A stretch of DNA of 64,000 bases from positions 93,633 to 157,632 of the forward strand of contig CAZGBJ010000001.1 in NCBI GenBank assembly GCA_964523895.1. The letters run 5' to 3'. Source of the DNA: an uncultured Enterobacteriaceae bacterium. GTDB lineage: Bacteria > Pseudomonadota > Gammaproteobacteria > Eutrophobiales > Eutrophobiaceae. The notes beneath the pieces were generated by a model, which was given only the letters and a program-made list of their open reading frames with translations, ran no database searches and was not told the DNA's origin. This document shows, piece after piece, positions 4,898 to 29,908 of the stretch; position 1 is the first letter of the stretch, and each line of letters begins with the position of its first letter. The translations under genes and the position numbers were made by a program.

Positions 4898-5368
4898 TTA
4901 CTGATAAGTACTTAAACTTAAGTTATTCCTTTCTAATAAATCATAACGGATACCTTCAATTCCTTGTAATCTTTTCAAGATATGAAACCTCTCCTGACTT
5001 TGAGACTCCTCAGGAAAGACACTCTTTAAAAGAGAGGATATTTGAACATAGGTAAATTCATTTTCAGGATTACCCGCCAAAATTCGTATATACAGTTGAA
5101 TTTTTGGAAGCCCATCTTGTTCAGCTTCTACTAATTGGATCCACATATTATCAAGTTTATCATTCGTCATTTCAGCCAATGTCTTAACACGAAGTTTTTC
5201 TACAGCTTCAAATTGACCTGTGAAGAACAATTTATTATGTGACCTCATATAATTACGATATTTATCAACCTCTGTCTCTGCATTAAGCCACCATGCAAAT
5301 ACAAAGCAGATTACAATGGTACAAGCTAAAATTAGATGACCTATACAAAGGCCTTTATATTTAAACAT
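4898..5368 (-). CDS. Hypothetical membrane-anchored protein (156 aa), last gene of the CotH/VTC operon
   Basis: Single N-terminal hydrophobic helix (LCIGHLILACTIVICFVFAWW). Sits 30 nt downstream of the CotH gene on the same strand. No recognisable family. Confidence 0.45.
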   Translation of the reverse strand: MFKYKGLCIGHLILACTIVICFVFAWWLNAETEVDKYRNYMRSHNKLFFTGQFEAVEKLRVKTLAEMTNDKLDNMWIQLVEAEQDGLPKIQLYIRILAGNPENEFTYVQISSLLKSVFPEESQSQERFHILKRLQGIEGIRYDLLERNNLSLSTYQ

Positions 5369-5398: not shown

Positions 5399-8101
5399 TT
5401 ACTTTAATGAGTGATATGCACTTTGTTTTATATGGTTTATTGATTCCTCGCCAACAACAATATCTTTTTCAGTAATGCCATGAAGACTCTTGCCAGATAT
5501 TACTCCTCCTCGACTATATCGCGCGTTCTTTCGATAAAGTGCTATGGCATTCCCCTTTTCAACTGAAAATTTAATATCCTCAACACGTACAATGGATTGA
5601 TCTTTAACCGCAATACCCAATACACAATCAGCAAGCTGACTCTTTTCAACTCTCACTTCACTTGCTTCACCGACTGAAATACATTTATCGCCGGTACCAT
5701 TGATATCAACATGACTAATTACTGATTTTGAATTCATCAGATCAATTGCATCATTTCCAATATTGTAAAAACGCGAATTAGATACAGAGACATCAACAAT
5801 ATCCATATCCAATGCATCAAAGGCTGTGTTATTAAATTCACAATTTCTAATGGCGCCACTACTATATGTGACATGCAAAGCATCATCGCCTACGGAATTA
5901 TTACTTATGAAACAGTTCTCTAATTGAAAAGAATTAACATAATGAATATTAAGCTGCCCCGGATAATTAATCAGGTTTCGTTGTGCAATAGAACCGCCAT
6001 TAACGTTAATATGAGCCATGACGCTTCCAGATGCTTCTTTACCTTGTATCACAATACTGCCCCAGGCCTGATCCAGATCTTTTTGTTTAAACTTGATTGG
6101 TGATTCTTCTGTTCCCTTTGCTATTACTTTTCCATAAAAAAATAGAGAACTATTCTTTGCCATCTTAAACACCGTCCCGGGCAAAATGTTTACTGTTTGC
6201 TCTTTTGTGAAATAGCGATCCTGATTAACTTCTATTTCACCCGATAATACAATCTCACTCACTACTTTTTCTTGTGTAAGTAATTCCCATGGATGAAATG
6301 AGGCTGTGTCAGCATCATCAGGTAAATTATCTACTTTTTCAATTGTTATGATATTTGAAGTGATTGCATTTTTACCTGTTAGTTTTTTTGTTTTAATTAG
6401 ATCAGCACTCTTCGCTCCTGTGATTAAGTATTCATAATGCAATGGTGATTGTTCATATGATTCATAAACTTTTGTTTCAGCCCCGCCTATTACATTATTT
6501 GATTGGTAACTTTCTGTTACTGCAATACCTGGATATAATCGATCTAATTGTTTTTTGTTTAGTACAGGATAAATCTCACCCTCATAGATGCGGAATAATT
6601 TAATTTCCTTATCGTTTGAATTTGACACAATTGACCAAGGATTAAAATCGACCGGACTGTTACCAAATATCGAAATAGAAACTTGAAACTGATCCTTAAT
6701 ATTCTCTTTAATATGATAATTTGCAGAAATAAAATTTAACCTATTCGCTATAAGTCCATATCGATAGTTATAAACTGTTTTCAACGTTTCGATAGCATTA
6801 CTATACTCATTCATAGAAAAAGGTAGAACCTTACCAAAACGACCAAATTTAAAATAATCATCGGGTTGTTGACGATAAGGATCCGCTGCTAGTTCACGTG
6901 CAATAATGTCATCTGCTTTATCAAGCATGTCAGCAACATAATCTACAGTAAACCTTTTCCGCAAATCATAAACTGTTAGATCATGTTCATATCTTAATAC
7001 AGGATTTAATAGTATTTGTTTATAGAGAGGTGTTACCGAAAGCGATTCGGATGTACTCCAAAAACGAATATCCCATTCAATCGGTTCAAATTTTCCTAAA
7101 TAGGGATCAAAATAAATTCGATGGTTATGAAATAAATCATGATGATCACTGCCAACTAATTTATCCAATGCCCAAAAAAGATAAAATTTATTCTTATCAA
7201 AGTAAGTGTCAAAATTTTTCATAAACATTAGTGGGTCTGGATCGTGAACCGATTTTATAAACAGCTCGATATCTTCACGGTTACCTGTTGATTCTATATT
7301 TCTTGAGGCATCTTTCTTCCATAATCTACTGTCAAACCATAATTCCGGTCTACCACGATTTACATAGACTTTCTCAGAAAGTCCTCTTTCTATTCCAAAT
7401 GGATCCGGCATATATATGGTATCGCCCGAATATATACTGCCGGGCATTCGATTATTTTTACGTAAAAATGATTCATCTATTTTACTTAGAAAAAAATGTA
7501 ATCCATTTGTTTCATTATTTATGAAGACACGTGCAGGAAAATATTCCGGCGTTAATAATCCAATCGAGCGCGCCATATCATAACTCACCCAGTCTGTAAC
7601 AGTGGCCATGGTTGATGGATTAACTAAATTAAACTGACGCTCATTACGATAAGTACTAAAAGGTGGGAGCTTGATTCTGATTGATTTTTTTTCATATAAC
7701 CAATGTAAATCCATTCCTCCCCGATAACGAAACTGAGCTTCACTTAAAAATTCCGGTCGATCTACCTTTAGATGACCTTTAACAAATTTACCTTTAGCAC
7801 TTTCAGGCAAGTTCGATACTAATGACTCTAAATCTTTATTATCAGCATATAAGTAAAATGAAGGTAGGCTAGTCTGTGCAGGTAGTTGTTTAATTGTTAA
7901 CTGTTGGTAATGGCGCTCTATATATTCGTTAATAAAATAGCGTAAATGGTCTAATGTATAACTTTCTTCAATAGCCATTACCTTCTTATATTGCATCATC
8001 TCTCTTACGCCACCAAACACAATACTACTTAATATAGTTAAGATGAATAGCGCTGAAAGAATAGGCCAATATGAACAATGTCTCGAGTGACTAATATTCA
8101 T
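5399..8101 (-). CDS. CotH kinase family protein with N-terminal signal anchor and C-terminal right-handed parallel beta-helix (PbH1) domain
   Basis: Central region RYRGGMDLHWLYEKKSIRIKLPP...QFNLVNPSTMATVTDWVSYDMARSIGLLTPEYFPARVFINNETNGLHFFLSKIDESFLRKNN...IYSGD fits the CotH domain pattern. The C-terminal ~200 aa carry repeated NxxxGDDAL, NTAFDALDMD, NIGNDAIDLM and GTGDKCISVG units typical of pectate-lyase-like beta-helices. The N-terminal hydrophobic segment is WPILSALFILTILSSIVFGG. Confidence 0.75.
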   Translation of the reverse strand: MNISHSRHCSYWPILSALFILTILSSIVFGGVREMMQYKKVMAIEESYTLDHLRYFINEYIERHYQQLTIKQLPAQTSLPSFYLYADNKDLESLVSNLPESAKGKFVKGHLKVDRPEFLSEAQFRYRGGMDLHWLYEKKSIRIKLPPFSTYRNERQFNLVNPSTMATVTDWVSYDMARSIGLLTPEYFPARVFINNETNGLHFFLSKIDESFLRKNNRMPGSIYSGDTIYMPDPFGIERGLSEKVYVNRGRPELWFDSRLWKKDASRNIESTGNREDIELFIKSVHDPDPLMFMKNFDTYFDKNKFYLFWALDKLVGSDHHDLFHNHRIYFDPYLGKFEPIEWDIRFWSTSESLSVTPLYKQILLNPVLRYEHDLTVYDLRKRFTVDYVADMLDKADDIIARELAADPYRQQPDDYFKFGRFGKVLPFSMNEYSNAIETLKTVYNYRYGLIANRLNFISANYHIKENIKDQFQVSISIFGNSPVDFNPWSIVSNSNDKEIKLFRIYEGEIYPVLNKKQLDRLYPGIAVTESYQSNNVIGGAETKVYESYEQSPLHYEYLITGAKSADLIKTKKLTGKNAITSNIITIEKVDNLPDDADTASFHPWELLTQEKVVSEIVLSGEIEVNQDRYFTKEQTVNILPGTVFKMAKNSSLFFYGKVIAKGTEESPIKFKQKDLDQAWGSIVIQGKEASGSVMAHINVNGGSIAQRNLINYPGQLNIHYVNSFQLENCFISNNSVGDDALHVTYSSGAIRNCEFNNTAFDALDMDIVDVSVSNSRFYNIGNDAIDLMNSKSVISHVDINGTGDKCISVGEASEVRVEKSQLADCVLGIAVKDQSIVRVEDIKFSVEKGNAIALYRKNARYSRGGVISGKSLHGITEKDIVVGEESINHIKQSAYHSLK

Positions 8102-9162
8102 AAATTGCCTTTGAATTCAGACTTGGCAACTTTACGAAAATCATTCCGCTTTGAATATCTGCCTAAAACAAGATAAATGAAAAGAAAGCCGATCATACTG
8201 AGACAAACAATCTGCCCAATCGAAAATAGTATTGGATATTCTCGAAATGATGCACGACTGGGTAAAATGGTTGTTGCCAACTTATGATATTCAGCATAAC
8301 CAAACCATGACGAGGATTTGATGTGAGGGAAATATAACTGGAATAATTTATCTGCTTGGCAAAAAAACATGTTGAGACTGCTTTCTTCATGTGCAGTAAG
8401 AATGTTTTCTTTATTAGAAAATATTTCGAACTTTAATAAAAACGAAGTGTTTGGCATACCAAAATCAACCACGCTGAACAAACTTAATGTGACAGCCCCA
8501 TATGGAATTCCAAAATGCGTTACTAAATTAACATTCTCAATTGATTTTAGCTTTAAAGACTCTGAAATTAGTTCCGGCTTTTCTATGTTAACAGTAGATA
8601 GCATTTCAAAAAGTATCGGCCGTTCTTTTCGTTTTACTCGTCCAAAAAGAGAGTGTTTATCGAATGGAGTTAATTTTTTGTTATAACTTCTTACAGTAAA
8701 ACTTTTCATCCCTTCAGTTAACTCGCCACGATCGCTAAAGATTATTTCTTCTTTTTCTACTCTATTTTCCGGTAAACTTTCATTGAATACATGCATCAAT
8801 TCTTTATTCGTATTTAGTAATTCCAAATTATCAAAATCATAATAAGTAATGCTTCTGGTAAGTTCTCCATCATAAATAATTAGTCGTGGTTCTTTAAAGG
8901 GAACATCTCTAGAGATACCTCGAATAAAAGTGGATACTGCAGCAATATCCTTATTATCAATTAAGTAATAAGTGTTTTTGAATTTTTGATTCTGACAAAC
9001 ATTTGGAAAAGCATCATTAGCAAAGACATGAGTAACTGTACACGTCAAAATACAGACGGTGACTAAAAAGAGTATCTTTACTATAGAAAACAATGGTGAA
9101 CTTCTATACAGAAGATAAATCCTGATCGTAAGTAACCAGAGTAGCTCGAATAACACTATCAT
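8098..9162 (-). CDS. Hypothetical protein (354 aa) with N-terminal signal/anchor and C-terminal TM helix
   Basis: In-operon ORF between the DUF4956 and CotH genes. The 5' end overlaps the DUF4956 stop by 59 nt, so the true start is probably internal. The C-terminal LFSIGQIVCLSMIGFLFIYLVLG is a TM helix. No family recognised. Confidence 0.5.
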   Translation of the reverse strand: MIVLFELLWLLTIRIYLLYRSSPLFSIVKILFLVTVCILTCTVTHVFANDAFPNVCQNQKFKNTYYLIDNKDIAAVSTFIRGISRDVPFKEPRLIIYDGELTRSITYYDFDNLELLNTNKELMHVFNESLPENRVEKEEIIFSDRGELTEGMKSFTVRSYNKKLTPFDKHSLFGRVKRKERPILFEMLSTVNIEKPELISESLKLKSIENVNLVTHFGIPYGAVTLSLFSVVDFGMPNTSFLLKFEIFSNKENILTAHEESSLNMFFCQADKLFQLYFPHIKSSSWFGYAEYHKLATTILPSRASFREYPILFSIGQIVCLSMIGFLFIYLVLGRYSKRNDFRKVAKSEFKGNL

Positions 9163-9820
9163 TAGTTTGCAGTTTATTCATAAAACCAGTTTGCTCTTGA
9201 TTTGTTTTTATCTCCAATGTGATCTCAGTTCCTGCAGCAGAAACTGTTTTTGATTTTATTGAAAAGAGATCAGCTTTTTGCTTTATTTCATTGAGAACAT
9301 TGTCTTCTTTTGATGAATCAGATAGTTGGATCACTAATAAAAACGTATCGGCTACGTCTTTTCCAGAACGTGTTAAAAACAGCATAAAAACTGCAATCAT
9401 AATAGAGCCAACAATTGAAATATTAAAATAACCAACGCCATTAGCAATACCAACACTAATCGCCCAAAATAGAAAAACGAGATCCATACTATCTTTAACC
9501 GGCGTTCTAAAACGAACAATCGACAATGCACCAACCATACCTAAAGAAAGTATCAAATTGCCACTGATCGTCATTATGATCATGGATGTCACTGTACTCG
9601 CTAAAACTAACGAGATATTAAAACTGCGTTGATATAAAACGCCCTGATATGTTTTCTTATAAATAAAAAATATAAACATGCCTACAAAAAATGACATCGA
9701 TATATTAAGCAGAATATTTAATGTTGTAATTCTATCCGTACTACCCATAGACATTGCGATAAAACTTTTCTGTAGTACGTCTGCAAAGGTAACTTGATCC
9801 ATGATTAGTTGTCCTCCCAT
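9104..9820 (-). CDS. DUF4956-like polytopic membrane protein
   Basis: 238 aa with four hydrophobic helices followed by a soluble C-terminal domain. Its gene order matches the conserved VTC/DUF4956/CotH triad. Confidence 0.6.
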   Translation of the reverse strand: MGGQLIMDQVTFADVLQKSFIAMSMGSTDRITTLNILLNISMSFFVGMFIFFIYKKTYQGVLYQRSFNISLVLASTVTSMIIMTISGNLILSLGMVGALSIVRFRTPVKDSMDLVFLFWAISVGIANGVGYFNISIVGSIMIAVFMLFLTRSGKDVADTFLLVIQLSDSSKEDNVLNEIKQKADLFSIKSKTVSAAGTEITLEIKTNQEQTGFMNKLQTNDSVIRATLVTYDQDLSSV

Positions 9821-10518
9821 TTACGGACTTTATGGAAACGTCTGGCTAATGTGTATTTACTAATAGCCATTCTTTCGGAATTAATTGATGATAATACATT
9901 CTTTAAATATCCAGGAAAAAAATTGTCATACTTTATTTCCAGTATTTGTTTGCCTTCAAGAATTACTGGCATCATATCTTTTACAGATGAAAACAAATCA
10001 AGGTGGTTTATATTCGAACGTAAACCTTGATCAAACGTCACTCTAATATTAGAAACAGGCAAAACATAAGCAACTCGATTATATTCAACGATCACTTTAG
10101 GTTTATAGAGCTTTGTAACAAAGGTGGTGTAAATTTCATTAAGAACAGGGTTATTTTTACCTAATAGCACAGTATAGTTACCCAGACATACTTGTTCAGC
10201 CTCTTCTTTGCTAATTATCGCAACATCTTTTTTTACAATTTGCCCCTGTTTACGCTTTATCTCAAATTTTACAGACTCATTGGCTCCGTCACCGTAGGTA
10301 CGTAATCGAATTTTTTTTCGCAATAGATTTCCTGACTGCTTCTCATATAAGCATTCATCGTCGTGCGAATCAAAGTAAAGACTACGTACACGATAACCTT
10401 GTTGATTCTTACAGTATGCATCGACATCCATCAACGAATTTAATTGATGTAACGATCTGTCAGATTGAATCTCGTTGAGATAGAATTTTAATTCGTAACG
10501 TTTTGATTGTATTTGCAC
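9805..10518 (-). CDS. VTC-domain (polyphosphate polymerase-like, CYTH/triphosphate tunnel) protein
   Basis: KRYELKFYL...VRSLYFDSHDDECLY...KKIRLRTYGD...KFEIKRK...YNRVAY...IRVTFDQGL...ILEIKYD...ISKYTLARRF follows the VTC-domain pattern: basic tunnel residues and the RxR/KxK, RxTxD and EIK motifs. Confidence 0.75.
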   Translation of the reverse strand: MQIQSKRYELKFYLNEIQSDRSLHQLNSLMDVDAYCKNQQGYRVRSLYFDSHDDECLYEKQSGNLLRKKIRLRTYGDGANESVKFEIKRKQGQIVKKDVAIISKEEAEQVCLGNYTVLLGKNNPVLNEIYTTFVTKLYKPKVIVEYNRVAYVLPVSNIRVTFDQGLRSNINHLDLFSSVKDMMPVILEGKQILEIKYDNFFPGYLKNVLSSINSERMAISKYTLARRFHKVRKWEDN

Positions 10519-10725
10519 TGATATAAAGTAATTTATATTTTTATAAATTTTATTTAATAGTTAACAATTTCTTTAATTCTGAAGAAATATATCATGTATG
10601 ACTGACAATATATTTCAACTAGTACTTACGTTATTGATTTCACAATTACACTTTAATTTATTTCGTATTAGATGAAAGATTGAATAACTTAATGTTTTTT
10701 CACAATAATATCTTTAGTAAAAACA

Positions 10726-10786
10726 TGACAATCTTGTCACTTTATGACAACAAAAGTCATTTTTATCGATTCGATATCAGTCGAAT
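10726..10786. promoter_or_regulatory. Cluster of three palindromes, candidate enhancer/UAS sites: TGACAAtcTTGTCA, ATGACaacaaaaGTCAT, ATCGAtTCGAT/ATTCGAtatcagTCGAAT
   Basis: Perfect inverted repeats read directly at 10726-10739, 10744-10760 and 10765-10786. They lie 75-135 bp upstream of the sigma-54 -24/-12 element of pilin 1, which is the position expected for a bacterial enhancer-binding protein such as PilR. They could instead serve the divergent VTC operon. Confidence 0.3.
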
Positions 10787-10858
10787 TTATTTTTATATGT
10801 TTCATTAAATTATTGAATATATTAGGAATATTTATTATATCTGTGTTTCTACCAATTC

Positions 10859-10875
10859 TGGCATAAGCTCTGCTT
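10859..10875 (+). promoter_or_regulatory. Sigma-54 (RpoN) -24/-12 promoter for pilin gene 1
   Basis: TGGCATaagctcTGCTT has GG and GC at the canonical 10-nt spacing (consensus TGGCAC-N5-TTGCW). It lies ~95 nt upstream of the pilin ATG. The sigma-54-dependent activator PilR is encoded nearby. Confidence 0.55.
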
Positions 10876-10968
10876 AACAGTAAACACCTCAAACTGAGGT
10901 AAAAACTATAGTTTTTGTAATCAGTTTTAAACTTATATAAACAAATCCATACAAACGGAGATTTTATA

Positions 10969-11388
10969 ATGAAACAAATGAAGAAAATCACTAGTACAAG
11001 TGAAAGAGGTTTTACTCTTATCGAATTAATGATTGTGGTTGCTATTATCGGTATTCTTGCCGCAGTAGCAATTCCGTCATATCGTGCATATGTTGCTGAA
11101 TCACACGGTGGTGCAGCAATGAAAGGTGTAGGTGCTTATGTATCTCAATCTCAAGTATGTGTCGAAACAGGTGTTGGCTGTACTGAATTAACTACCAGTG
11201 CTGGTGCTGATGCTGCGGTCACTTTAACCTCTGTTTCTGAAGGCGCTACTAGCTCAACCGTCGCATATAACGAAGGTGCCTGTATTATTACTGCTACCCT
11301 TGTTGCTGCATCTGTAACCTATGTTGCAACTGTTGGTACTGCAGGTGGTGCAACAGCTGCACAGTGTCAATCTGGCGCAGGTCTATAA
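10969..11388 (+). CDS. pilA: Type IVa major pilin (PilA-like), copy 1
   Basis: Leader ends ...SERG followed by [24 protein letters not shown], the class III signal peptide and N-terminal helix. GGAG RBS. Four Cys residues (one C-x6-C pair plus a C-terminal disulfide loop). Ser/Thr/Ala/Gly-rich C-terminal domain. Confidence 0.9.
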
Positions 11389-11412
11389 TTCTTAGATTAT
11401 AGAAACGTTACT

Positions 11413-11442
11413 AAAAAGACCCGCTGATGCGGGTCTTTTTAA
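11413..11442 (+). terminator. Rho-independent terminator after pilin 1
   Basis: aaaaAGACCCGCtgatGCGGGTCTtttt: an 8-bp GC-rich stem, 4-nt loop and T-run, A-tract upstream, so it is bidirectional in form. Confidence 0.8.
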
Positions 11443-11632
11443 ATAATAATAAAGATTTATGTGGTTCTGTGCTTAGTTGTTATTTACATCGATTCATAAG
11501 GTGTTTATTCATCTCAACCAAAAGATACATCTAGTCACATCCATGGGGAATGGATAGACGCTCAAAAGCTATATTCGCGTTGACTCCATTTACAGAAAAA
11601 ATATTTTTTGTATATCGTGAAGGAGTAAACTC

Positions 11633-12040
11633 ATGAATAATAAACACTCATCTCAACAGGGTTTTACCTTAATTGAATTAATGATCGTTGTTGCGATTAT
11701 CGGTATTCTTGCCGCAGTAGCAATTCCATCATATCGTGCTTATGTTGCTGAATCACATGGTGGTGCAGCTATGAAAGGGGTCAGTGCTTATGTGGCTCAG
11801 TCTCAAGCTTGCATTGAAACAGGTGTCGGTTGTACAGAATTAGCTACTAGTGCCGGTGGTGATGCAGCAGTCACTTTAACCTCTGTTTCTGAAGCTGCTA
11901 CCAGCTCAACCGTCGCATATAATGAAGGTGCTTGTATCGTTACTGCTACCCTCACTGCCGCATCTGTGGCCTATGTTGCAACTGTTGGTACTGCAGGTGG
12001 AGCAACAGCTGCACAGTGCCAAGCCGGAGCAGGTTTATAA
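11633..12040 (+). CDS. Type IVa major pilin, copy 2 (tandem paralog)
   Basis: Different leader ([10 protein letters not shown]). The mature protein differs from copy 1 at ~11 of 125 positions. AGGAG RBS. Confidence 0.9.
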
Positions 12041-12189
12041 TTATAAAACTGTTGAAATGTTACTAAAAAGATTTGTGTAGGTTTGCACTTAGTTGTTATA
12101 AAGTTACCAATTTCATTAGCTACTAAGTGTCATACTTACAAAGAGTTACAATCTTGTTATTCGTAAACAAATTTTCAACCCAATTCCGG

Positions 12190-13515
12190 TTATTTATTAA
12201 GACCATACTTATCTAAACGATAGCGTAAAACGCGTAAGCTTATACCCAATTTTTTCGCTGCCGCTGTTCGATTCCATTTAGTCTGCTCAAGCACTTCCAG
12301 AATAGCGTTTCGTTCTATGTCATCTAGTTGATTGACCAATGAAGCCGATTTCAGCTTATCTTGCTCGTTTTCGCCCTTACTTTTCTTGTCACTTAACAAT
12401 AAACCTTCTGGTTCAATTACATCGCTTTCAGCAAGCGTGAGTGCACGCTCAAGAATATTTTCCAGTTCACGAATATTGCCAGGGAAGTGATAAGTTTGAA
12501 GCTTACTTAAAGCCTCTGTAGATAAACGCGCTATCTGTTCTCCCGACTTATCTGCCATTTGCAACAAAATATGATTCACCAGGGAAACAATATCTTCCAT
12601 ACGATCTCTCAAAGCAGGAACATGAATTTCTATAACATTAATTCGATAATATAAATCCTTGCGAAAACTTTCCTGTTCCACCATCGCAGATAGTTGCTTA
12701 TGTGTTGCGCTTAAAATGCGTATGTCGATTTCTATTTCTTCTTGCGCGCCGACAGGTCGAATGCGTTTCTCCTGAATAGCACGTAATAATTTAACCTGAA
12801 GATGTAAGGGTAAATCCGCTACTTCATCAAGAAATAAAGTCCCTCCTTCAGCTGTATGAAGTAAACCTTCTTTATCAGAATCTGCGCCGGTAAAACTGCC
12901 TTTTTTGTGTCCAAAAAATTCACTTTCCATTAATTCATGCGGAATAGCACCACAATTAACCGGAACAAATGGTTTGTTAGTACGTGGACCAATATCATGA
13001 ATCATTCTTGCTACCAATTCTTTACCTGTACCCGATTCGCCGCTGATATGTATTGGTGCCTGACTACGAGCAACTTTATTAATCGTGTTATGCAATTCTC
13101 GAATGACGGTACTATCACCGACGATCGTTGCCTTTGAAGTATTATCACTTAAACCTGAATGCAAAGCATTTTGCACCACTGTTCTTAATGAATTTAAATC
13201 AATGGGTTTTGTCAGGAAATCAAACGCACCATATTTTAATGCCTGGATAGCACTATCCATACTTCCATGAGCGGTGATTACAGCAATAGGTATTTGTGGA
13301 AAATTCGCTTGTAATTCATTAACAAATTCTACACCATTGCCGTCGGGCAATTTCATATCTGTCAGACACAAATCAAATTTATATTGATCTAACAATAATC
13401 GCGCCTTGGCAAGATCCTCTGCGCAATGACAATCAATTTGCATCCGTTGCAGTGTTATCTGCAACAGCTCCCGAATATCTGGCTCATCATCAATGATTAA
13501 CGCAAGTTGCGACAT
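12190..13515 (-). CDS. pilR: Sigma-54-dependent response regulator PilR (NtrC family)
   Basis: REC domain (IIDDEPDIRELL...DMKLPDGNG), AAA+ sigma-54 activation domain (GESGTGKELVARMIH, GAFTGA) and a C-terminal Fis-type HTH. Very close to the P. aeruginosa PilR N-terminus. Confidence 0.9.
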   Translation of the reverse strand: MSQLALIIDDEPDIRELLQITLQRMQIDCHCAEDLAKARLLLDQYKFDLCLTDMKLPDGNGVEFVNELQANFPQIPIAVITAHGSMDSAIQALKYGAFDFLTKPIDLNSLRTVVQNALHSGLSDNTSKATIVGDSTVIRELHNTINKVARSQAPIHISGESGTGKELVARMIHDIGPRTNKPFVPVNCGAIPHELMESEFFGHKKGSFTGADSDKEGLLHTAEGGTLFLDEVADLPLHLQVKLLRAIQEKRIRPVGAQEEIEIDIRILSATHKQLSAMVEQESFRKDLYYRINVIEIHVPALRDRMEDIVSLVNHILLQMADKSGEQIARLSTEALSKLQTYHFPGNIRELENILERALTLAESDVIEPEGLLLSDKKSKGENEQDKLKSASLVNQLDDIERNAILEVLEQTKWNRTAAAKKLGISLRVLRYRLDKYGLNK

Positions 13516-13517
13516 AT

Positions 13518-15131
13518 TTATACCAGTTCACCTTGTTTGTCAGTGTGCATAAAATTCAGTCTAAATGTTGTGCCATATTCTGAAGTTGAGTGTAAATTTA
13601 AATTTGCCTGATTGGCCTCGCATAATTCACGAGCAAGATATAATCCCAAACCCGAGCCCTGTGTCTCTGTTGTAAAAAAAGGTTCGAAAAGATGTTCTTT
13701 AATTTTTTCGGACACTCCAGAACCCGTATCAATGATATCAATATACGGTCTTTGTATTTCCTCGTTAATATCACAAGATAAAGTAATAACGGGCTTGCTC
13801 TGACTATAACGTATCGCATTCTCACAAAGATTCCAGACAACCTGATGTAATTGAGATGGATCCATTCTGACAAGAATATTTTCTCTCATTACCTCAAGTG
13901 CGATATCTCCGCTGGATAAATTATGCCTGGATTCAAATTCGTTAATAAATTTTTTCATCCAGGAAATTATTTCAAAATCTTCTAACGTTGCCTGATCTCT
14001 GCGACTAATACTTAGTACATTTTCAATAATATTGTTAACACGAAGAGAATGCTCATTAATAATTTCAGTTAAGCGTTTATCCTCCAGGCAGATCGTATCA
14101 GATTCTTGCAATAACTGACCTGCATGATTAATTGCGCCCAAAGGGTTCCTGACTTCATGTGCAATACTTGCTGTTAATCTTCCTAATGAAGCAAGTTTTA
14201 GATGCTGGGCTCGCTGTCTCAACCTCGCTATATCTTCAAGGAAAACTAAGATCTGATAATTTATTCCTAATGTTAATTTAATAAATGAAACCTGCAACTC
14301 GGCTTCATATTCATTTAGTTTAATAATTACATTTTGCATTCCATTGTTATTTAGCCAGTCATCTATATAAGCTTTCAGATAGTTATTTATAAAATGGAAA
14401 ATTTTATGTGTGTCTCCTTGCTGTTGCCCCAATAACTGTTTAGATGATTCATTAATAAGTAATACATTCATATTGCTATCAAGAACAATAATCCCTGATT
14501 GCATGCGCTGAACAATATGCTCATTTAATTTTGCTAATTCATTTATTTCTATAGCCTGCTGCTCAGCCAATGCTTCCGTTTCGCGTACTCGCGCAGCTAA
14601 AAGATTTCCAATAATAGCTGTGATAAAGAATGTTGCACCGAGCATTCCAGCGTGAATGTAGTTTACCCTGTCGAAGAAGAGGACGAATTGAACATACAGC
14701 TCGTGTCCCAGGACAAATAGTGTTGCAATTGCAGCAAAAAGTATCGAGATCCTTCCTTCTCGTAGTATGCTACCACCAGCAACTGCAATAATGATTAACA
14801 GACCAAAACCGCTACCAAGACCACTGCTCGAGTACATCAATAATCCCAACATAATGATGTCTAGCAGGACATGAAATGCAATTTGAATATTAAATCCGGG
14901 GCTCTGCTGCAGAATAAACCAGCTAAAAATGAAAGCCGCAAATAAATAAATGTGGCTAGTTACTGAAAAAAAATGAGCATTCATACTACCCAATGGCGCA
15001 GGCAGTTGGCCTATGTAGACCAAAATGACAAATAAACCGGAAAGCAAAACTCGATAATTATTAAAATACCGTAATGCACGCCAATCCATGGATTTGGTCT
15101 GCTTCCGTATTATTTTATTAGCTTTATCCAT
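13518..15131 (-). CDS. pilS: Sensor histidine kinase PilS
   Basis: Six N-terminal TM helices, an H-box (ASIAHEVRNPL) and an HATPase domain (N, G1 and G2 boxes). Lies immediately upstream of pilR, with 2 nt between them. Confidence 0.85.
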   Translation of the reverse strand: MDKANKIIRKQTKSMDWRALRYFNNYRVLLSGLFVILVYIGQLPAPLGSMNAHFFSVTSHIYLFAAFIFSWFILQQSPGFNIQIAFHVLLDIIMLGLLMYSSSGLGSGFGLLIIIAVAGGSILREGRISILFAAIATLFVLGHELYVQFVLFFDRVNYIHAGMLGATFFITAIIGNLLAARVRETEALAEQQAIEINELAKLNEHIVQRMQSGIIVLDSNMNVLLINESSKQLLGQQQGDTHKIFHFINNYLKAYIDDWLNNNGMQNVIIKLNEYEAELQVSFIKLTLGINYQILVFLEDIARLRQRAQHLKLASLGRLTASIAHEVRNPLGAINHAGQLLQESDTICLEDKRLTEIINEHSLRVNNIIENVLSISRRDQATLEDFEIISWMKKFINEFESRHNLSSGDIALEVMRENILVRMDPSQLHQVVWNLCENAIRYSQSKPVITLSCDINEEIQRPYIDIIDTGSGVSEKIKEHLFEPFFTTETQGSGLGLYLARELCEANQANLNLHSTSEYGTTFRLNFMHTDKQGELV

Positions 15132-23212: not shown

Positions 23213-23241
23213 TATGATCATAGCTATAAATGAGACAAAAA

Positions 23242-25833
23242 ATGCGACCCGATAAATTAACAACAAAATTACAACTGGCACTGGCTGAAGCACAGAGTCT
23301 GGCTGTGGGTCGCGATCACCAATATATCGAACCTGTCCATCTGGCACAGGCATTACTTAACCAGGATGGCGGAACACTTTCTCACATACTGTCTAGTTCA
23401 GGAGTTAAACTGAATAAATTAGGCTCGGAAATATTAAAACTTCTGGATTCATTACCAACTGTCAGTGGTGCAGGTGGTGATGTTCATATCAGTCGTGACC
23501 TGGATCGCGTCTTGAACCTTATGGATAAGATTGCCCAGGATCGGAATGATGATTTTATTGCCAGTGAACTTTTTGCCCTGGCTGCATTGCAAGACAAAGG
23601 AAAATTAGGTGCTTTATTAAAACAAAATGGTGCTGATGAGAACAAGCTTAATGTTGCGATCAACGCCTTACGTGGCGGCGAAAAAGTCAAGGATGCAAAC
23701 ACTGAAGAAAATCGACAGGTACTGGAAAAATATACCAATGATCTTACTGCCATGGCTGAAAGCGGCAAACTGGATCCTGTCATTGGTCGCGATGAAGAAA
23801 TTCGACGCACCATCCAGGTATTACAACGCCGTACTAAAAATAATCCGATCTTAATTGGTGAGCCCGGCGTAGGGAAAACAGCGATTGTCGAAGGTTTGGC
23901 GCAACGTATTGTCAATGGTGAAGTGCCTGAATTATTAAAACGAAAAAGATTATTAGCGCTTGATATGGCTGCACTCATTGCTGGCGCCAAATTTCGTGGT
24001 GAATTTGAAGAACGTTTAAAGGCAGTCTTGCATGATCTTGCAAAACAGGAAGGTCAGATAATCCTGTTCATCGATGAAGTACACACGATGGTTAGTGCTG
24101 GCAAAGCTGAAGGTGCTATGGACGCCGGAAATATGCTTAAACCTGCTTTAGCACGCGGTGAACTTCATTGCATTGGTGCGACTACGCTCGATGAGTTCCG
24201 TGAAAATATTGAGAAGGACGCTGCTTTGGAACGTCGATTCCAAAAGGTGCTGGTTAATGAACCTAATGTTGATGACACCATTGCCATACTTCGGGGTTTA
24301 AAGGAACGTTACGAGGTTCATCATAATGTGCAGATAACTGATCCTGCCATTGTTGCAGCCGCAACATTGTCCAATCGTTACATCACCGATAGACAATTAC
24401 CTGATAAGGCAATTGATTTGATTGATGAGTCAGCAAGTCGTATCAGTATAGAAATTAATTCAAAGCCGGAAGCTATGGATCGGCTTGAACGTCGAGTAAT
24501 TCAAATGAAAATTGAACGTGAGGCATTAAAAAAGGAAACAGATACTGCATCGGAAAAACGACTAAAGTTACTTGAAACAGATATTGAAGAGACTGAACGA
24601 GAATTTACTGATCTGGAAGAAATATGGATATCTGAAAAAGCAGCCTTGCAAGGAACTCACCATATTAAAGAAAAACTTGAACAAGCAAGATTCAATTTTG
24701 AAGCAGCTAAACGTTCAAGTGATTTGAATCAGATGTCAGAACTCCAGTATGGCGTCATCCCGGAACTTGAAAAACAACTGGATATGGCGGGACAGGCTGA
24801 GATGCAAGAATTGAAATTACTTCGCAATAAAGTGACTGAGAACGAAATTGCTGAAGTTGTTGCTAATTGGACAGGTATCCCGGTCAATAAAATGATGCAA
24901 GGCGAACGTGAAAAATTACTGGCGATGGAAGATGCATTACATCAGCGCGTGGTCGGACAAGAACAAGCCATTACTGCCGTTGCTAATGCCATTCGTCGCT
25001 CACGTGCAGGACTTTCTGATCCAGACAAACCCAATGGCAGTTTTCTTTTTCTAGGGCCAACTGGCGTAGGCAAAACAGAGCTGTGTAAAAGTCTGACTGA
25101 ATTTTTATTTGATAGTGAAGATGCCATGATCCGGGTCGATATGTCCGAATACATGGAAAAACATGCAGTCGCACGGTTGATTGGCGCGCCTCCAGGTTAT
25201 GTTGGCTATGAACAAGGCGGAATGTTGACTGAAGCCGTAAGACGACGTCCTTATAGCCTGATTTTACTAGACGAGATAGAAAAGGCTCATACCGATATAT
25301 TTAATATATTACTACAGGTACTCGATGATGGGCGTTTGACCGATGGACATGGTCGTACCGTGGACTTTCGCAATACTGTCATTGTTATGACCTCAAATCT
25401 CGGTTCACAGCTAATACAGGAAATGTCTACCGATTCAGAATATGACAATATGAAAGAAATTGTATTGAATGAAGTCAGTCACTATTTCAGACCTGAATTT
25501 ATTAACCGAATCGATGACGTCGTTGTTTTCCATGCACTGCTTCAGGAACAAATCCACGCTATTACAGAAATTCAGGTAGAGCGTCTGCGTCAGCGCTTAC
25601 ATGAACAGGAAATTGCGCTGGAATTAAGCGATGAGGTAATTACCAGTCTGGGCAACGCAGGATTTGACCCTGTTTATGGTGCCCGCCCGTTAAAACGTGC
25701 TATTCAGGAAAAGCTTGAAACACCTATAGCTGAGAAAATTCTGGCCGGAAAATATGGTGCTGGATCACTGATAAAAGTAAGCCTGGCTGAAGGGGAAATG
25801 CAGTTTTCTGAACTCGAAACAAATGCAGCATAA
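23242..25833 (+). CDS. clpB: Chaperone disaggregase ClpB
   Basis: [18 protein letters not shown] matches the E. coli ClpB start. Two AAA+ modules ([15 protein letters not shown] and [12 protein letters not shown]) and a middle coiled coil. Confidence 0.95.
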
Positions 25834-25978: not shown

Positions 25979-27694
25979 ATGTCGACACCTGCAAAAAAAA
26001 TAAATCTGAGTGGGCTAGCACGGAAACTCGTGCAAGATGGCCTGCTTGATGAAGAAAAAGCGCAAAGTACGCATGAAGAGGCACTAAAGAAGAAAAGACC
26101 TTTTGTTAGTCTTCTCGTAGAAAACAAACTTGTCCCCAGTAGCAGCATTGCATTGGCGGCGGCCCAGGAATTTGGTGCGCCACTGGTTGATATCGATTTA
26201 CTGGAAATTGACCCTGATGTCATCAAGCTGGTCAAAGAAGACCTCATCAAGAAACACCATGCCCTACCCATTTTCAAACGCGGTAAGCGCCTTGCTGTTG
26301 CTGTCGCTGATCCAACCAATATCCTGGCTCTTGACGAAATTAAATTTGCAACCAGCTTAGGTACTGACGCTATTGTTGTAGAAGAAGATAAACTCACAAA
26401 GACCATCGAGAAAGCCATAGAAGAAGCAGAGGGTGGCTTGGGCGACATGGATGGTGACGATTTCGATGATCTCGATGATTTGGAAGTTGCTGAAGATGGC
26501 CCACAAGAGGAGGATGACTCTGACGTTGACGATGCACCAGTAGTACGTTTTGTCAATAAATGTTTGCTTGATGCCATTAAAAAAGGCGCGTCAGATTTAC
26601 ATTTTGAACCCTATGAAAAAATGTACCGCGTACGCTTTCGTGTAGACGGTGTTTTAATGGAAGTAGCAAAACCTCCCTTGAGCCTTAATTTGAAAATAGC
26701 GGCACGCATAAAAGTAATGTCACGAATGGACGTATCAGAACGACGTGTTCCACAAGACGGACGTATCAAATTAAAACTCTCAAAAACAAAAGCGATTGAT
26801 TTTCGTGTTAGTACTTGCCCAACACTGTTCGGTGAAAAAACCTGTATGCGAATTCTGGATTCAGATGCCGCCGCATTACAAATAGATCAGTTGGGATATG
26901 AAGACCACCAGAAAGAAATGTTTTTAGACAACTTGCATAAACCTTATGGCATGTTCCTTGTTACCGGGCCAACGGGTAGTGGTAAAACTGTTTCGCTTTA
27001 TACTGGCATCAATATCCTGAATCAGGTAGATATCAATATTTCCACTGCCGAAGATCCTGTTGAAATTAATCTCCCCGGCGTCAACCAGGTTCAGGTTGAT
27101 GAGAAACAAGGCATGACATTCGATAAAGCCTTGAAAGCTTTTTTAAGACAGGATCCGGACATTATTCTGGTAGGGGAAATACGCGATTTGGGTACAGCTT
27201 CTATTGCGGTAAAAGCAGCACAGACAGGACATATGGTAATGTCGACATTGCATACCAATGATTGCCCGCAAACCCTGACCCGTTTACAAGACATGGGCAT
27301 ACAGGCTTTTGCCGTGGCAACCAGTATTAACCTTATTACTGCACAACGATTACTCCGACGCCTAAAGGAAGATAATCGGGCAGTGATAGAAATGCCTGAC
27401 GAGACCCTAAGAGAAGAAGGCTTCCCTGAAGAAATGATTAAAGAGGGCATTACTCTGTATGGCCCTGCTGAAGATACAGAAGATAATCCAGGCTACAAAG
27501 GGCGAGCAGGCATCTATCAAGTTATGCCCATATCAGATGACATGAAACGTTTGATTATTGAAGGTGCTAACGCGGTACAGTTGGCCGATCAAGCTTCGTC
27601 AGAGGGTATATGGGACATCCGTAAATCAGGTTTAATGAAGGCGGCCGCTGGCGTCACCAGTATGGTCGAAGTTAATCGAGTAACCGTAGAGTAG
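25979..27694 (+). CDS. pilB: Type IV pilus assembly ATPase PilB
   Basis: Walker A GPTGSGKT, Asp and His boxes, tetracysteine region and N-terminal GSPII domains. Confidence 0.95.
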   Translation: MSTPAKKINLSGLARKLVQDGLLDEEKAQSTHEEALKKKRPFVSLLVENKLVPSSSIALAAAQEFGAPLVDIDLLEIDPDVIKLVKEDLIKKHHALPIFKRGKRLAVAVADPTNILALDEIKFATSLGTDAIVVEEDKLTKTIEKAIEEAEGGLGDMDGDDFDDLDDLEVAEDGPQEEDDSDVDDAPVVRFVNKCLLDAIKKGASDLHFEPYEKMYRVRFRVDGVLMEVAKPPLSLNLKIAARIKVMSRMDVSERRVPQDGRIKLKLSKTKAIDFRVSTCPTLFGEKTCMRILDSDAAALQIDQLGYEDHQKEMFLDNLHKPYGMFLVTGPTGSGKTVSLYTGINILNQVDINISTAEDPVEINLPGVNQVQVDEKQGMTFDKALKAFLRQDPDIILVGEIRDLGTASIAVKAAQTGHMVMSTLHTNDCPQTLTRLQDMGIQAFAVATSINLITAQRLLRRLKEDNRAVIEMPDETLREEGFPEEMIKEGITLYGPAEDTEDNPGYKGRAGIYQVMPISDDMKRLIIEGANAVQLADQASSEGIWDIRKSGLMKAAAGVTSMVEVNRVTVE

Positions 27695-27699
27695 ATATT

Positions 27700-28920
27700 A
27701 TGGCTGAAGCAAAAAAAGCAGATATGTATGCCTGGGAAGGCACGGACAAAAAAGGCAAACGTGTTAAAGGAGAGTTGAGTGGGCAGAGCGAAGCATTAGT
27801 AAAAGCCCAATTAAGACGCCAGGGCATTAATCCTCTTAAAGTTAAAAAGAAATCAAAACCTTTATTGGGCGGTGGTGGTGGAAAAATAACACCGAAAGAC
27901 ATCACAGTCTTTAGCCGACAGTTAGCTACAATGATGTCATCAGGTGTACCTCTTGTGCAGGCTTTCGAAATTGTTGGTCGAGGTCATGATAATCCTGCTA
28001 TGCAAGATTTAATTCTGGGCGTTAAAGCAGATGTAGAAGCGGGTAATAACCTAACTGAGGCACTCAGGAAAAAACCATTACAATTTAATGATTTATATTG
28101 CAACCTTGTAGAAGCAGGTGAACATGCCGGTATACTTGAAGCCATTCTGCATAAACTTGCAACCTACATGGAGAAATCTGAAGCATTAAAATCTAAAATC
28201 AAGGCAGCGTTATTCTACCCAGGTGCGGTTATAGCAATGGCAGGCATTGTTGTAAGTATCCTAATGATCTTTGTCATACCACAATTCTCTGAACTTTTTT
28301 CCAGCTTTGGCGCTGACTTACCGGCTCTAACACAACTATTGGTAGATTGTTCAAATTTTTTCGTTGCTTATTGGTGGCTAATATTTGGCGTTACCGGTGG
28401 CGCTATTTATGGCGCAATGGAGATAAAGAAAAGATCAAAAGCCGTCCAGCAATTTCTTGATCGGGCCATATTAAAAATGCCCGTTCTTGGTGAAATAATG
28501 GAAAAAGCCGCTATCGCTCGTTTTGCTCGAACGTTAGAAACCATGTTTGCAGCAGGTACGCCTATGGTAGAAGCTATGGTTTCGGTAGCAGGTGCTTGCG
28601 GTAATATTGTTTTTTATGATGCCACTATGAAAATGAAAGATGAAATTTCTACCGGCACACAGCTTCAGGCATCCATGAGAGAAACAGGTTTATTTCCAAA
28701 CATGGTCATTCAAATGGTAGCCATCGGTGAAGAATCAGGCGCTATAGATACTATGCTTGGTAAAGTTGCTGATTGGTATGAACAAGAAGTTGATGATGCT
28801 GTTGAAGCACTGACAAGTTTACTTGAGCCGGCGATTATGGCATTTTTAGGTGGCGTTATTGGTACCATTGTTATTGGTATGTATCTTCCTATCTTCCAGA
28901 TGGGTCAAGTCGTTAAGTAA
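27700..28920 (+). CDS. pilC: Type IV pilus platform protein PilC
   Basis: Two GspF repeats. 406 aa. Follows pilB. Confidence 0.95.
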   Translation: MAEAKKADMYAWEGTDKKGKRVKGELSGQSEALVKAQLRRQGINPLKVKKKSKPLLGGGGGKITPKDITVFSRQLATMMSSGVPLVQAFEIVGRGHDNPAMQDLILGVKADVEAGNNLTEALRKKPLQFNDLYCNLVEAGEHAGILEAILHKLATYMEKSEALKSKIKAALFYPGAVIAMAGIVVSILMIFVIPQFSELFSSFGADLPALTQLLVDCSNFFVAYWWLIFGVTGGAIYGAMEIKKRSKAVQQFLDRAILKMPVLGEIMEKAAIARFARTLETMFAAGTPMVEAMVSVAGACGNIVFYDATMKMKDEISTGTQLQASMRETGLFPNMVIQMVAIGEESGAIDTMLGKVADWYEQEVDDAVEALTSLLEPAIMAFLGGVIGTIVIGMYLPIFQMGQVVK

Positions 28921-29029: not shown

Positions 29030-29908
29030 GTGCCTATAATCATTGAGTTATTTCATACATCCCCTGCCTTTTATCTCAGTACTATCTTCGTATTAGGGCT
29101 ACTCGTTGGAAGTTTTCTGAATGTTGTTATTTTTCGTTTACCTACAATGATGGAAAGCGACTGGCAGCAACAATGTTGTGAGTTACTTGATATAGATGAT
29201 GCTAAATATAAAAAAGAAAACGAAGGTTTTAATCTCATTACTCCTCGCTCGCGTTGCCCGTCTTGCAATCATCAAATTAGCGCAATGGAGAACATCCCTG
29301 TCATTAGTTATTTATTTTTAAAAGGGAAATGTAGTAATTGCGAAAATAAAATTTCGATTCGTTATCCATTAATTGAATTAGTAAGCGCAATAACTGTAAC
29401 TATTGTTGCATTTTATTTTGGTGTTACATTACAAGCGTTATTTGCAATATGTCTTACCTGGGCACTCATTGCCTTAAGCATGATTGATTTTGATCATCAA
29501 TTACTTCCTGATGATATTACACTACCCTTCTTATGGCTTGGAATTATCATAAACTTGTTTGGTATTTTTACAGATATTGAATCAAGTATACTCGGTGCAA
29601 TATTTGGCTACGGCTCATTATGGCTTGTCTATATCTCATTTAAATTAGTTACTGGTAAAGAAGGAATGGGGCATGGTGATTTTAAATTATTAGCCGTATT
29701 AGGTGCGTGGTTTGGTTGGCAGGCACTTCCTCTAATTATTATATTATCCTCTGTCGTTGGTGCCAGCATTGGCATTTTATTAATGATCTTTAAATCATAT
29801 AACAGAACAACAGCAATACCATTTGGACCCTACTTGGCAATTGCTGGCTGGACATCTATGTTATGGGGACCGTACATCATGTCTGCTTATTTAAATGCAG
29901 TAATTTAA
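29030..29908 (+). CDS. pilD: Prepilin peptidase/N-methyltransferase PilD
   Basis: CPSC...CSNC zinc motif plus polytopic membrane helices with the catalytic Asp residues. Confidence 0.9.
   Translation: MPIIIELFHTSPAFYLSTIFVLGLLVGSFLNVVIFRLPTMMESDWQQQCCELLDIDDAKYKKENEGFNLITPRSRCPSCNHQISAMENIPVISYLFLKGKCSNCENKISIRYPLIELVSAITVTIVAFYFGVTLQALFAICLTWALIALSMIDFDHQLLPDDITLPFLWLGIIINLFGIFTDIESSILGAIFGYGSLWLVYISFKLVTGKEGMGHGDFKLLAVLGAWFGWQALPLIIILSSVVGASIGILLMIFKSYNRTTAIPFGPYLAIAGWTSMLWGPYIMSAYLNAVI

Follow-up and report, generated by a model that had tools for sequence, protein, structure and literature searches.

Tandem PilA-type pilin genes with apparently concerted mature regions and distinct upstream regions in an uncultured marine gammaproteobacterium

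Why do bacteria keep two tandem paralogous genes for a major pilin? The question is mostly unresolved in the cultured examples, and it is raised again by a locus in a stretch of 64,000 nucleotides (nt) of DNA from an uncultured Enterobacteriaceae bacterium (assembly GCA_964523895.1, contig CAZGBJ010000001.1, positions 93,633 to 157,632; hereafter the window). There, two genes for prepilins with closely similar mature parts follow each other on one strand (copy 1, pilA1-like, and copy 2, pilA2-like; Table 1). A sequence-only reading of this locus had proposed that such a layout serves either antigenic or phase variation, by recombination between the cassettes, or the differential expression of alternative major pilins. 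Our results point away from the former. We consider it probable, though by no means certain, that these are two functional PilA paralogues born of an old duplication, the mature part of which has been homogenised by gene conversion, and that the two are regulated separately.

Both genes are complete. Each has a start codon, a Shine-Dalgarno sequence, a leader and a stop codon, and they lie adjacent on the same strand, 244 nt apart; GGAG stands 8 nt 5΄ of the ATG of copy 1, and AGGAG 7 nt 5΄ of that of copy 2. The tandem pair with unlike leader peptides that had been read from the sequence is indeed present, both open reading frames (ORFs) being complete and the leaders only 20% alike (2 of 10 aligned residues). 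In both proteins a hydrophilic leader ends in Gly and is followed by Phe at +1 and Glu at +5 of the mature part (...ERG/FTLIELM in copy 1, ...QQG/FTLIELM in copy 2), and DNA similarity between the copies ceases 5΄ of about codon -3. The start of copy 1 is called differently in public data, where a protein of 136 amino acids (aa) begins at the second Met (MKKITS..., position 10978; P0001); since GGAG occupies 10957-10960, we favour the start at 10969, with its 14-aa leader.

The two products carry the hallmarks of type IV prepilins. The Pfam N_methyl model (PF07963) matches copy 1 with an E value of 4e-9 and copy 2 with one of 9e-11, and the NCBIfam prepilin motif (TIGR02532) is found in both. 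Residues 10-139 of copy 1 align with residues 8-138 of structure 9LAA, the subunit of the Shewanella oneidensis MR-1 PilA filament (E 5.5e-36); this filament is made of PilA, and the 6-nm type IV pilus of S. oneidensis is missing in a pilA mutant (PMC13334000). An AlphaFold2 model of copy 1, built with 66 homologues, has a pilin fold at a mean predicted local distance difference test score (pLDDT) of 90.7, and consists of a long α1 helix (residues 17-67), a short helix in the αβ-loop (71-80), four strands (84-87, 95-101, 105-112 and 115-122) and a C-terminal helix (130-137). In a Foldseek search with this model the sole significant match was 9laa_A, with 55% identity and template modelling scores of 0.70 and 0.76. 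Cys64, Cys71, Cys105 and Cys133 are invariant in the 66 homologues, with Cys105 and Cys133 as candidates for the C-terminal disulfide of a pilin D-region. Because of the prepilin motifs, the homology to 9LAA, the fold, the invariant cysteines and the presence of pilB, pilC, pilD, pilR and pilS in the same window, both copies appear to be genuine type IVa PilA-type major-pilin genes, of the Shewanella PilA type, the products of which would be assembled into pili.

How different are the two pilins? The estimate of about 91% identity with some 11 differences proved accurate: on alignment the mature proteins are 91.2% identical, with 11 substitutions in 125 aa, and the N-terminal helix is shared as had been noticed, mature residues 1-40 being identical. 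The substitutions from copy 1 to copy 2 (G41S, S45A, V49A, V51I, T61A, A66G, G78A, I93V, V98T, T103A and S121A, in mature numbering) are all conservative and, on the AlphaFold2 model, are spread over the C-terminal half of α1, the αβ-loop, the strands and the C-terminal helix. Aligned nucleotide by nucleotide, the mature coding regions are 86.7% identical (50 of 375 nt differ, 36 of them at third codon positions), with exact common runs of up to 32 nt. As to composition, 75-76% of the residues of the globular parts (11170-11385 and 11822-12037) are Ala, Gly, Ser, Thr or Val, and each mature pilin has one Lys and one Arg only, so that the surface is unusually rich in small residues and weakly charged for a pilin. 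An exact 11-mer, ATTAGCTACTA, occurs inside copy 2 (11839-11849) and again 75 nt past its stop codon (12115-12125); it pairs with 12086-12098 as an imperfect 13-nt inverted repeat, and may be due to chance or be the trace of a lost third copy.

The history of the pair was read from related loci, which were found by exact-protein look-ups and fall into five lineages: W (the window together with L001 and L002, which are the same locus, 100% identical over more than 11 kilobases (kb)), B (L003-L005), C (L006-L008, including the metagenome-assembled genome GCA_013112535.1), D (L010) and E (L011, GCA_021773245.1). Judging by source names and ClpB matches, these are uncultured marine Gammaproteobacteria. 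Lineages B, C, D and E share the gene order CotH, DUF4956 and VTC, then the two pilins, then pilR, pilS, sucC and sucD; their PilR proteins are 74-81% identical to that of the window, at a genome-level DNA identity of about 76%. Degenerate protein patterns of copy 1, run against a genome collection, gave among the matches listed only an unrelated N-terminal match in Stutzerimonas. A gene call of the Joint Genome Institute (JGI) for copy 1 of lineage B adds five residues. A more distant locus, L013 (5619-8742; PilR 68% identical), has pilS and pilR followed by two same-strand tandem pilins of another type (PF00114, 141 and 151 aa), with a G+C-rich hairpin and a T-run between them and a 629-aa ORF lacking a Pfam match behind them.

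An ortholog of copy 2 with the same type of leader is present in B, C, D and E, and the leaders sort by position in all lineages, being MKQMK(K/R)... in copy 1 and M(N/K)(N/Y)K(H/N)..QQG in copy 2. The leaders of copy 1 are 43-100% identical to one another and those of copy 2 50-80%, as against 20-40% across positions, and neighbour-joining of the leader DNA separates the two positions with bootstrap values of 100 (copy 2) and 80 (copy 1). Similarly, the upstream regions align copy 1 with copy 1 and copy 2 with copy 2 across lineages. The mature regions tell another story. They group by genome in three of the five lineages (W, D and E): in the tree of mature DNA, W1 joins W2 and D1 joins D2 (bootstrap 100 each), while B1 with C1 (85) and B2 with C2 (100) are orthologous. 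Lineage E lies outside that tree, and its pairing rests on amino acid identity, E1 and E2 being 84% identical to each other and either one 48-57% identical to the other pilins of the set, although the E2 leader is 80% identical to that of W2. Within genomes the mature proteins are 91, 83, 86, 87 and 84% identical in the five lineages. Site patterns in quartets agree with the trees: in the leader every informative site supports orthology, whereas the C-terminal sites are mostly concerted (concerted to ortholog 19:13 for W/B, 26:12 for W/C and 8:30 for B/C).

Since leaders and upstream regions that group by position conflict with mature regions that group by genome, the duplication appears to be old and to have been followed by recurrent gene conversion of the mature part. 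The conversion tracts would start at the invariant N-terminal helix and, as far as these alignments tell, have never included leader or promoter. In lineage W the tract probably ran from the start of the mature part to about 60 nt past the stop codon, because the two W copies share both the mature DNA and a flank motif described below. Between W1 and W2 the synonymous divergence (dS) is 0.50, the nonsynonymous divergence (dN) 0.049 and their ratio (omega) 0.10, and the dS value indicates that the last conversion in W was probably not recent. The paralog ratio is 0.10-0.15 in W, B and C, and omega lies at 0.09-0.28 in all comparisons, that is, under purifying selection. A recent duplication was also considered, and is ruled out by the dS of 0.5 and the orthologous placement of the pair in five lineages. 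Recombination between the copies thus seems to work on an evolutionary timescale, and to homogenise. Lineage D has a more eventful array: downstream of D2 lies a decayed, 5΄-truncated pilin fragment (L010, about 6337-6472) that is 78% identical to nt 129-265 of D1 (E 1e-27), and a second such fragment lies between D1 and D2 (about 5516-5585). Unequal crossing-over seems to have made this array grow and shrink, and the 64-kb window holds no equivalent of these fragments.

Duplication beyond the stop codons, which had been put at some 70 nt, was confirmed as two shared blocks, which reach about 60 nt past copy 2 and about 95 nt past copy 1. The first runs from the stop codon to AAAGA and is identical at 27 of 34 positions, and the second lies further 3΄ (BLAST E values 5e-4 and 4e-5). 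The difference in length corresponds to a 36-nt segment after copy 1, which together with the A-run before it forms the hairpin recognised earlier as an intrinsic terminator. This hairpin is longer than had been stated, with 13 pairs (TAAAAAGACCCGC at 11412-11424 and GCGGGTCTTTTTA at 11429-11441), seven of them G-C; the region has a folding energy of -22.1 kcal/mol (z -4.4), and none of 200 shuffled sequences folded as well. It was missed by a simple terminator scan because its A/T pairs absorb the T-run, and was recovered by folding and by a repeat finder. After copy 2 the equivalent stretch folds like its shuffles (z -0.01), in agreement with the earlier statement that no hairpin exists there. 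The stem GACCCGC/GCGGGTC is invariant in lineages W, B, C and E, with a variable loop, and in lineage D its place is taken by another G+C-rich hairpin with a T-run. A scan of 10400-12300 against Rfam returned sub-threshold matches only, all owed to this hairpin. The 3΄ flank appears to have been homogenised within W, because the 11-mer TTAGTTGTTAT is found in both W flanks, unlike the first flank of B and C, which has TAGATGTTTT instead.

Regarding regulation, the element TGGCATAAGCTCTGCT upstream of copy 1 is the sole exact match to the sigma-54 consensus TGGCAY-N6-TGCW in the 64-kb window, where 0.74 would be expected by chance, and in all five lineages the alignment places a GG-N10-GC element (TGGCATG....CTGCT) at this position 5΄ of copy 1. 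Further upstream is an AT-rich element that we take to resemble the IHF consensus, of which the block TAA.T.ATTGAATA is kept in W, B, C and E. Beyond it lies a candidate PilR site, the TGACA-N4-TGTCA core of which is invariant in the five lineages within an AT-rich spacer that is otherwise poorly conserved; it is proposed as such from its position, from the adjacent pilR and from its likeness to the Pseudomonas aeruginosa elements. In P. aeruginosa the PilR elements are of the GTCT/TGTC type, and pilin genes need PilSR and sigma-54 in this and other species (PMC6058289). The sigma-54 motif, the upstream site and the adjacent pilRS genes thus correspond to the standard layout of a PilR/sigma-54 pilin promoter, to which PilR would bind. 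In the predicted 5΄ untranslated region (UTR) of copy 1, a hairpin and a perfect palindrome are nearly invariant in the five lineages, the two variable positions keeping their pairing through G-U wobble; these elements may act as a 5΄-terminal stabiliser of the messenger RNA or as a protein-binding site. They have no Rfam match in the scan of 10400-12300, and a search of one metagenome DNA collection with their pattern gave no matches, the contigs with this locus apparently being outside that collection.

Upstream of copy 2 the picture is different. A sigma-54 promoter is ruled out there, since all five lineages lack a GG-N10-GC element 5΄ of this gene. Instead, there are conserved blocks with a putative role as promoter or operator: an inverted repeat (AACGCT-N13-AGCGTT in B and C, ACGC...GCGT in W) overlaps a -35-like TTGA(C/G/A)T, and the palindrome ACAGAAAAAATATTTTTTGT stands just 5΄ of the Shine-Dalgarno sequence. 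Two sigma-70-like matches are found in this region, TTGACT-16-TATTTT and TTTACA-18-TATCGT.

We therefore return to the two proposals with which we began. The anatomy of the locus fits differential expression of alternative pilins, with a sigma-54 promoter and activator site at copy 1 only, a conserved intergenic terminator and distinct blocks at copy 2; the expression pattern itself is what we infer from this anatomy. In our favoured explanation copy 1 would be monocistronic, transcribed from the sigma-54 promoter upon activation by PilR and ending at the strong intrinsic terminator, and copy 2 would be transcribed on its own, from an intergenic promoter that does not depend on PilR, to which a little read-through may add. 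The same PilD would process both precursors and the same PilBC machinery would assemble both, so that what is essentially one pilus subunit would be made in two amounts or under two kinds of control. Since the last conversion in W, only conservative changes would have accrued, under purifying selection.

Several points weigh against this explanation. The sigma-70-like matches upstream of copy 2 are at chance level (8 found, 7.5 expected in shuffles), the hexamers are weak and the -10 element is not conserved, and because of this copy 2 may depend on read-through from copy 1. The comparison comprises five lineages, all of them metagenome assemblies, and the dS estimates, made on 125 codons, are rough for a gene that is probably highly expressed and codon-biased. 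In principle, independent re-duplications with replacement could also give grouping by genome, although this is less parsimonious because leaders and upstream regions are position-specific. Finally, within each of W, B and C the contigs agree at every position (100% identity over 2.6-12.4 kb, including the flanks) and may represent the same population or re-assemblies; recombination or switching at the population level is thus conceivable.

The main rival to separate expression is attenuated read-through from copy 1, and between the two we regard separate, PilR-independent expression of copy 2 as more likely. Here the pair would be one operon transcribed from the sigma-54/PilR promoter, in which the hairpin stops most transcripts and leaves copy 2 at a fixed lower level; copy 2 may then, for example, co-assemble with copy 1 as an accessory subunit or one of low abundance. 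A terminator after the gene for the major subunit is a common way to set subunit ratios in fimbrial operons, and the two genes are on the same strand, 244 nt apart, with matched mature domains that would suit co-assembly and without a convincing conserved -10 element 5΄ of copy 2, where promoter-like matches are no more frequent than expected. However, the hairpin is a strong canonical terminator, with its 13 base pairs (bp), seven G-C pairs and T-run. Moreover, conserved blocks that a passive spacer would not need, including the inverted repeat over the -35-like hexamer, occur in the 190 nt that separate copy 2 from the hairpin, and in the closest studied analogue, the pilA2-pilA1 pair of Legionella pneumophila, each gene is reported to be monocistronic (PMC13170364). 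We hold an attenuated operon to be possible but rather unlikely, at about one chance to three against.

A bolder proposal, which we put forward as speculation and judge improbable, is that the pair has been selected as a circuit of matched subunits. Conversion would be favoured because both pilins must enter one fibre and PilS must perceive them alike, by way of the 40 N-terminal residues that they have in common, and the cell would toggle between the PilR-driven copy 1 and the PilR-independent copy 2. Two couplings could serve such a circuit, PilS-mediated pilin feedback and antisense transcription from copy 2 into pilR across gaps of 24-149 nt in C, B and W; as an outcome, expression of copy 2 would shut copy 1 down, or both pilins would co-polymerise in a set ratio. 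As to the second coupling, copy 2 is convergent with pilR and has no recognisable intrinsic terminator, the stop-to-stop gap being 149 nt in the window (12041-12189), 79 nt in lineage B (L004, 6400-6484) and 24 nt in lineage C (L007, 3462-3491). Because of this short distance and the lack of a terminator, transcripts of copy 2 may run antisense into pilR.

Less probable still is that copy 2 is a redundant, dispensable spare without a distinct role, which persists only for a time or because of gene dosage. Redundancy would accord with the near-identity of the mature proteins, and in several species one of two tandem pilins has little or no piliation phenotype, as is the case for PilA1 of L. pneumophila (PMC13170364). 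Against this, five lineages at about 76% genome-level DNA identity have all maintained the pair, its ORFs and Shine-Dalgarno sequences intact and its leaders specific to position, both copies are under purifying selection, and their conserved regulatory regions are distinct.

What remains of antigenic or phase variation? The two copies are direct repeats, 86.7% identical with exact runs of up to 32 nt, which would be sufficient for RecA-dependent exchange; conversion between them appears to have occurred over evolution, and lineage D has decayed 5΄-truncated pilin fragments beside its two genes. Nevertheless, both copies are complete and translatable, and searches of the 64-kb window (blastn with word size 7, and tblastn) found no further pilin-like DNA or protein, hence no silent cassettes. 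No match to a recombinase or invertase family was found among the ORFs of 120 aa or more that lie up to about 10 kb from the pilins in either direction; two of these neighbours (8098-9162 and 4898-5368) have no family match, and the assignments of sucCD, NAD synthase and CotH come from orthologous loci alone. The pilin genes are both on the plus strand, in direct orientation, and no long inverted repeats are present, the longest besides the terminator being 11-24 nt with 71-92% complementarity. The region 10700-10968, which is 24-25% G+C, has no GGG runs of the kind required for a Neisseria-type guanine quadruplex. Exchange would give almost no antigenic novelty, because only 11 conservative substitutions separate the copies; no diversifying selection (omega 0.10) or hypervariable segment was detected between them, and the dS of 0.5 argues against recent exchange. 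The organism is, as far as the sources indicate, free-living and marine, and not a pathogen that faces adaptive immunity. Frequent recombination within the population that generates variants or switches the pilin type, as in Neisseria pilE/pilS or Moraxella tfpQ/I, is therefore very unlikely, and the earlier proposal to that effect is not borne out.

The remaining components of a pilus system are found in the same window (Table 1), and the orthologs of its pilR are called PilR in the JGI annotation. Directly 5΄ of the pilins, on the minus strand (5399-10518), are genes for a CotH kinase-like/β-helix protein of 900 aa, an unannotated 354-aa ORF, a DUF4956 protein and a VTC-domain protein; the CotH/DUF4956/VTC cluster is syntenic in all five lineages. 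The ClpB of the window (23230-25833) is 94% identical to that of a 460-kb JGI contig (P0122), the PilR of which (P0271) is only 68% identical, while in lineages B-E ClpB is 84-86% and PilR 74-81% identical. Judging from these identities, either ClpB or the pilus regulatory region may have a history unlike that of the rest of the genome. Contigs with the 94% ClpB were rejected as near neighbours for the pilin locus, on account of the 68% PilR and a different pilin type.

Table 1. Features of the tandem pilin locus and of the associated pilus genes in the window.
Feature	Position	Strand	Description
Candidate PilR activator site	10717..10751	+	GTAAAAACATGACAATCTTGTCACTTTATGACAAC; TGACA-N4-TGTCA core, with TGACA a third time; some 128 bp 5΄ of the -24 GG
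IHF-like AT-rich element	10806..10819	+	TAAATTATTGAATA; between activator site and promoter
Sigma-54 (-24/-12) promoter motif, copy 1	10859..10874	+	TGGCATAAGCTCTGCT; match to TGGCAY-N6-TGCW
5΄ UTR elements, copy 1	10886..10916	+	Hairpin ACCTCAAACTGAGGT, then perfect palindrome AAAAACTATAGTTTTT
Pilin copy 1 (pilA1-like)	10969..11388	+	139-aa prepilin: 14-aa leader and 125-aa mature part; Shine-Dalgarno GGAG at 10957-10960
Intrinsic terminator hairpin after copy 1	11412..11441	+	13-bp stem, loop TGAT, then T-run
Copy-1-only 36-nt segment	about 11420..11455	+	3΄ part of the hairpin; flanked by the 5-nt microhomology AAAGA
Flank block 2, copy 1	11451..11483	+	AAAGATTT...CTTAGTTGTTAT; 27/33 identical to 12067-12099
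Conserved blocks 5΄ of copy 2	11555..11614	+	TAGACGCT...CGCGTTGACTCC; -35-like hexamers TTGACT/TTTACA; palindrome ACAGAAAAAATATTTTTTGT; from alignments
Pilin copy 2 (pilA2-like)	11633..12040	+	135-aa prepilin: 10-aa leader and 125-aa mature part; Shine-Dalgarno AGGAG at 11621-11625
Duplicated flank of copy 2, lacking the hairpin segment	12041..12099	+	From alignment; fold no better than shuffles
pilR	12190..13515	-	Sigma-54-dependent response regulator; Pfam Response_reg, Sigma54_activat, HTH_8; convergent with copy 2
pilS	13518..15131	-	Sensor kinase with PilS-type membrane domain; Pfam 6TM_PilS, HisKA, HATPase_c
pilB	25979-27694	+	NCBIfam type_IV_pilB (TIGR02538), 793 bits, above cutoff
pilC	27700-28920	+	PilC/GspF-family matches, below each model's curated cutoff
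pilD, prepilin peptidase	29030-29908	+	Pfam A24_N_bact, Peptidase_A24

The features that make this locus noteworthy are comparative ones, a structural part that evolves in apparent concert, two long-conserved leaders and control regions, and a pilin that diverges fast between lineages; the result is tidy but unsurprising. It offers a comparative case in which the orthology of leaders and promoters has survived long divergence, the structural part being, on our reading of the trees, repeatedly homogenised. The pilin diverges fast between lineages, those of E being 48-57% identical to the others although the PilR of E is 81% identical to that of the window. Since leaders and promoters stay orthologous while this fast-diverging mature part is homogenised, the comparison suggests that regulation, and neither structure nor antigenicity, is the reason why both genes are kept. 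The locus also illustrates how an invariant N-terminal helix may set the boundary of recombination tracts in pilin genes and, for annotation, that two pilin genes with 91% identity and a common flank are not to be taken for antigenic-variation cassettes.

The locus belongs to a known kind, that of tandem paralogous major-pilin genes, with L. pneumophila, Pseudomonas stutzeri and Kingella kingae as cultured examples. At the protein level, which is the level of that comparison, the closest relative of solved structure is S. oneidensis PilA (9LAA), which is 55% identical over the full length, has all four cysteines and likewise starts with a long hydrophilic leader that ends in Gly. In L. pneumophila, pilA2 and pilA1 are in tandem, 196 bp apart, each monocistronic, and 72% identical, and only PilA2 forms pili (Barajas et al., mBio 2026, PMC13170364). 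As in that species, we find two tandem same-strand genes of the major-pilin type with a gap of about 200 bp (196 there, 244 here), predicted major pilins of about 136 aa and a pair conserved across the species of the group (PMC13170364). In contrast, the 72% identity of the Legionella pair comes with differences along the whole length, and that pair lies away from other pilus genes (PMC13170364), whereas here the mature identity is 91%, the 40 N-terminal residues are identical, pilR and pilS are adjacent, and evolution appears to be concerted. The functional split, with pili formed by PilA2 only and an iron phenotype, is described for Legionella.

In P. stutzeri, a second related pilA, pilAII, reportedly lies directly downstream of pilAI, likewise in a gammaproteobacterium with a PilA/PilSR-type system; the paralogues are said to be much more divergent than ours and to have opposite effects on transformation (work attributed to Graupner and Wackernagel, 2001). 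In K. kingae (attributed to Kehl-Fie et al., 2009), the first gene, pilA1, is said to encode the sigma-54/PilR-dependent major pilin and the second, pilA2, to be dispensable for piliation; that species differs from ours in bacterial class and pilin subtype, and we know of no description of concerted evolution for its pair.

The locus shares with Neisseria pilE/pilS and Moraxella tfpQ/I the presence of more than one pilin-coding sequence and recombination between the copies. Those systems, however, generate diversity, in Neisseria by RecA-dependent, non-reciprocal transfer from promoterless, truncated cassettes, and in Moraxella by a site-specific invertase (Piv) that acts on inverted segments. 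Here no invertase was found, and the pair consists of complete genes in direct orientation between which recombination appears to homogenise.

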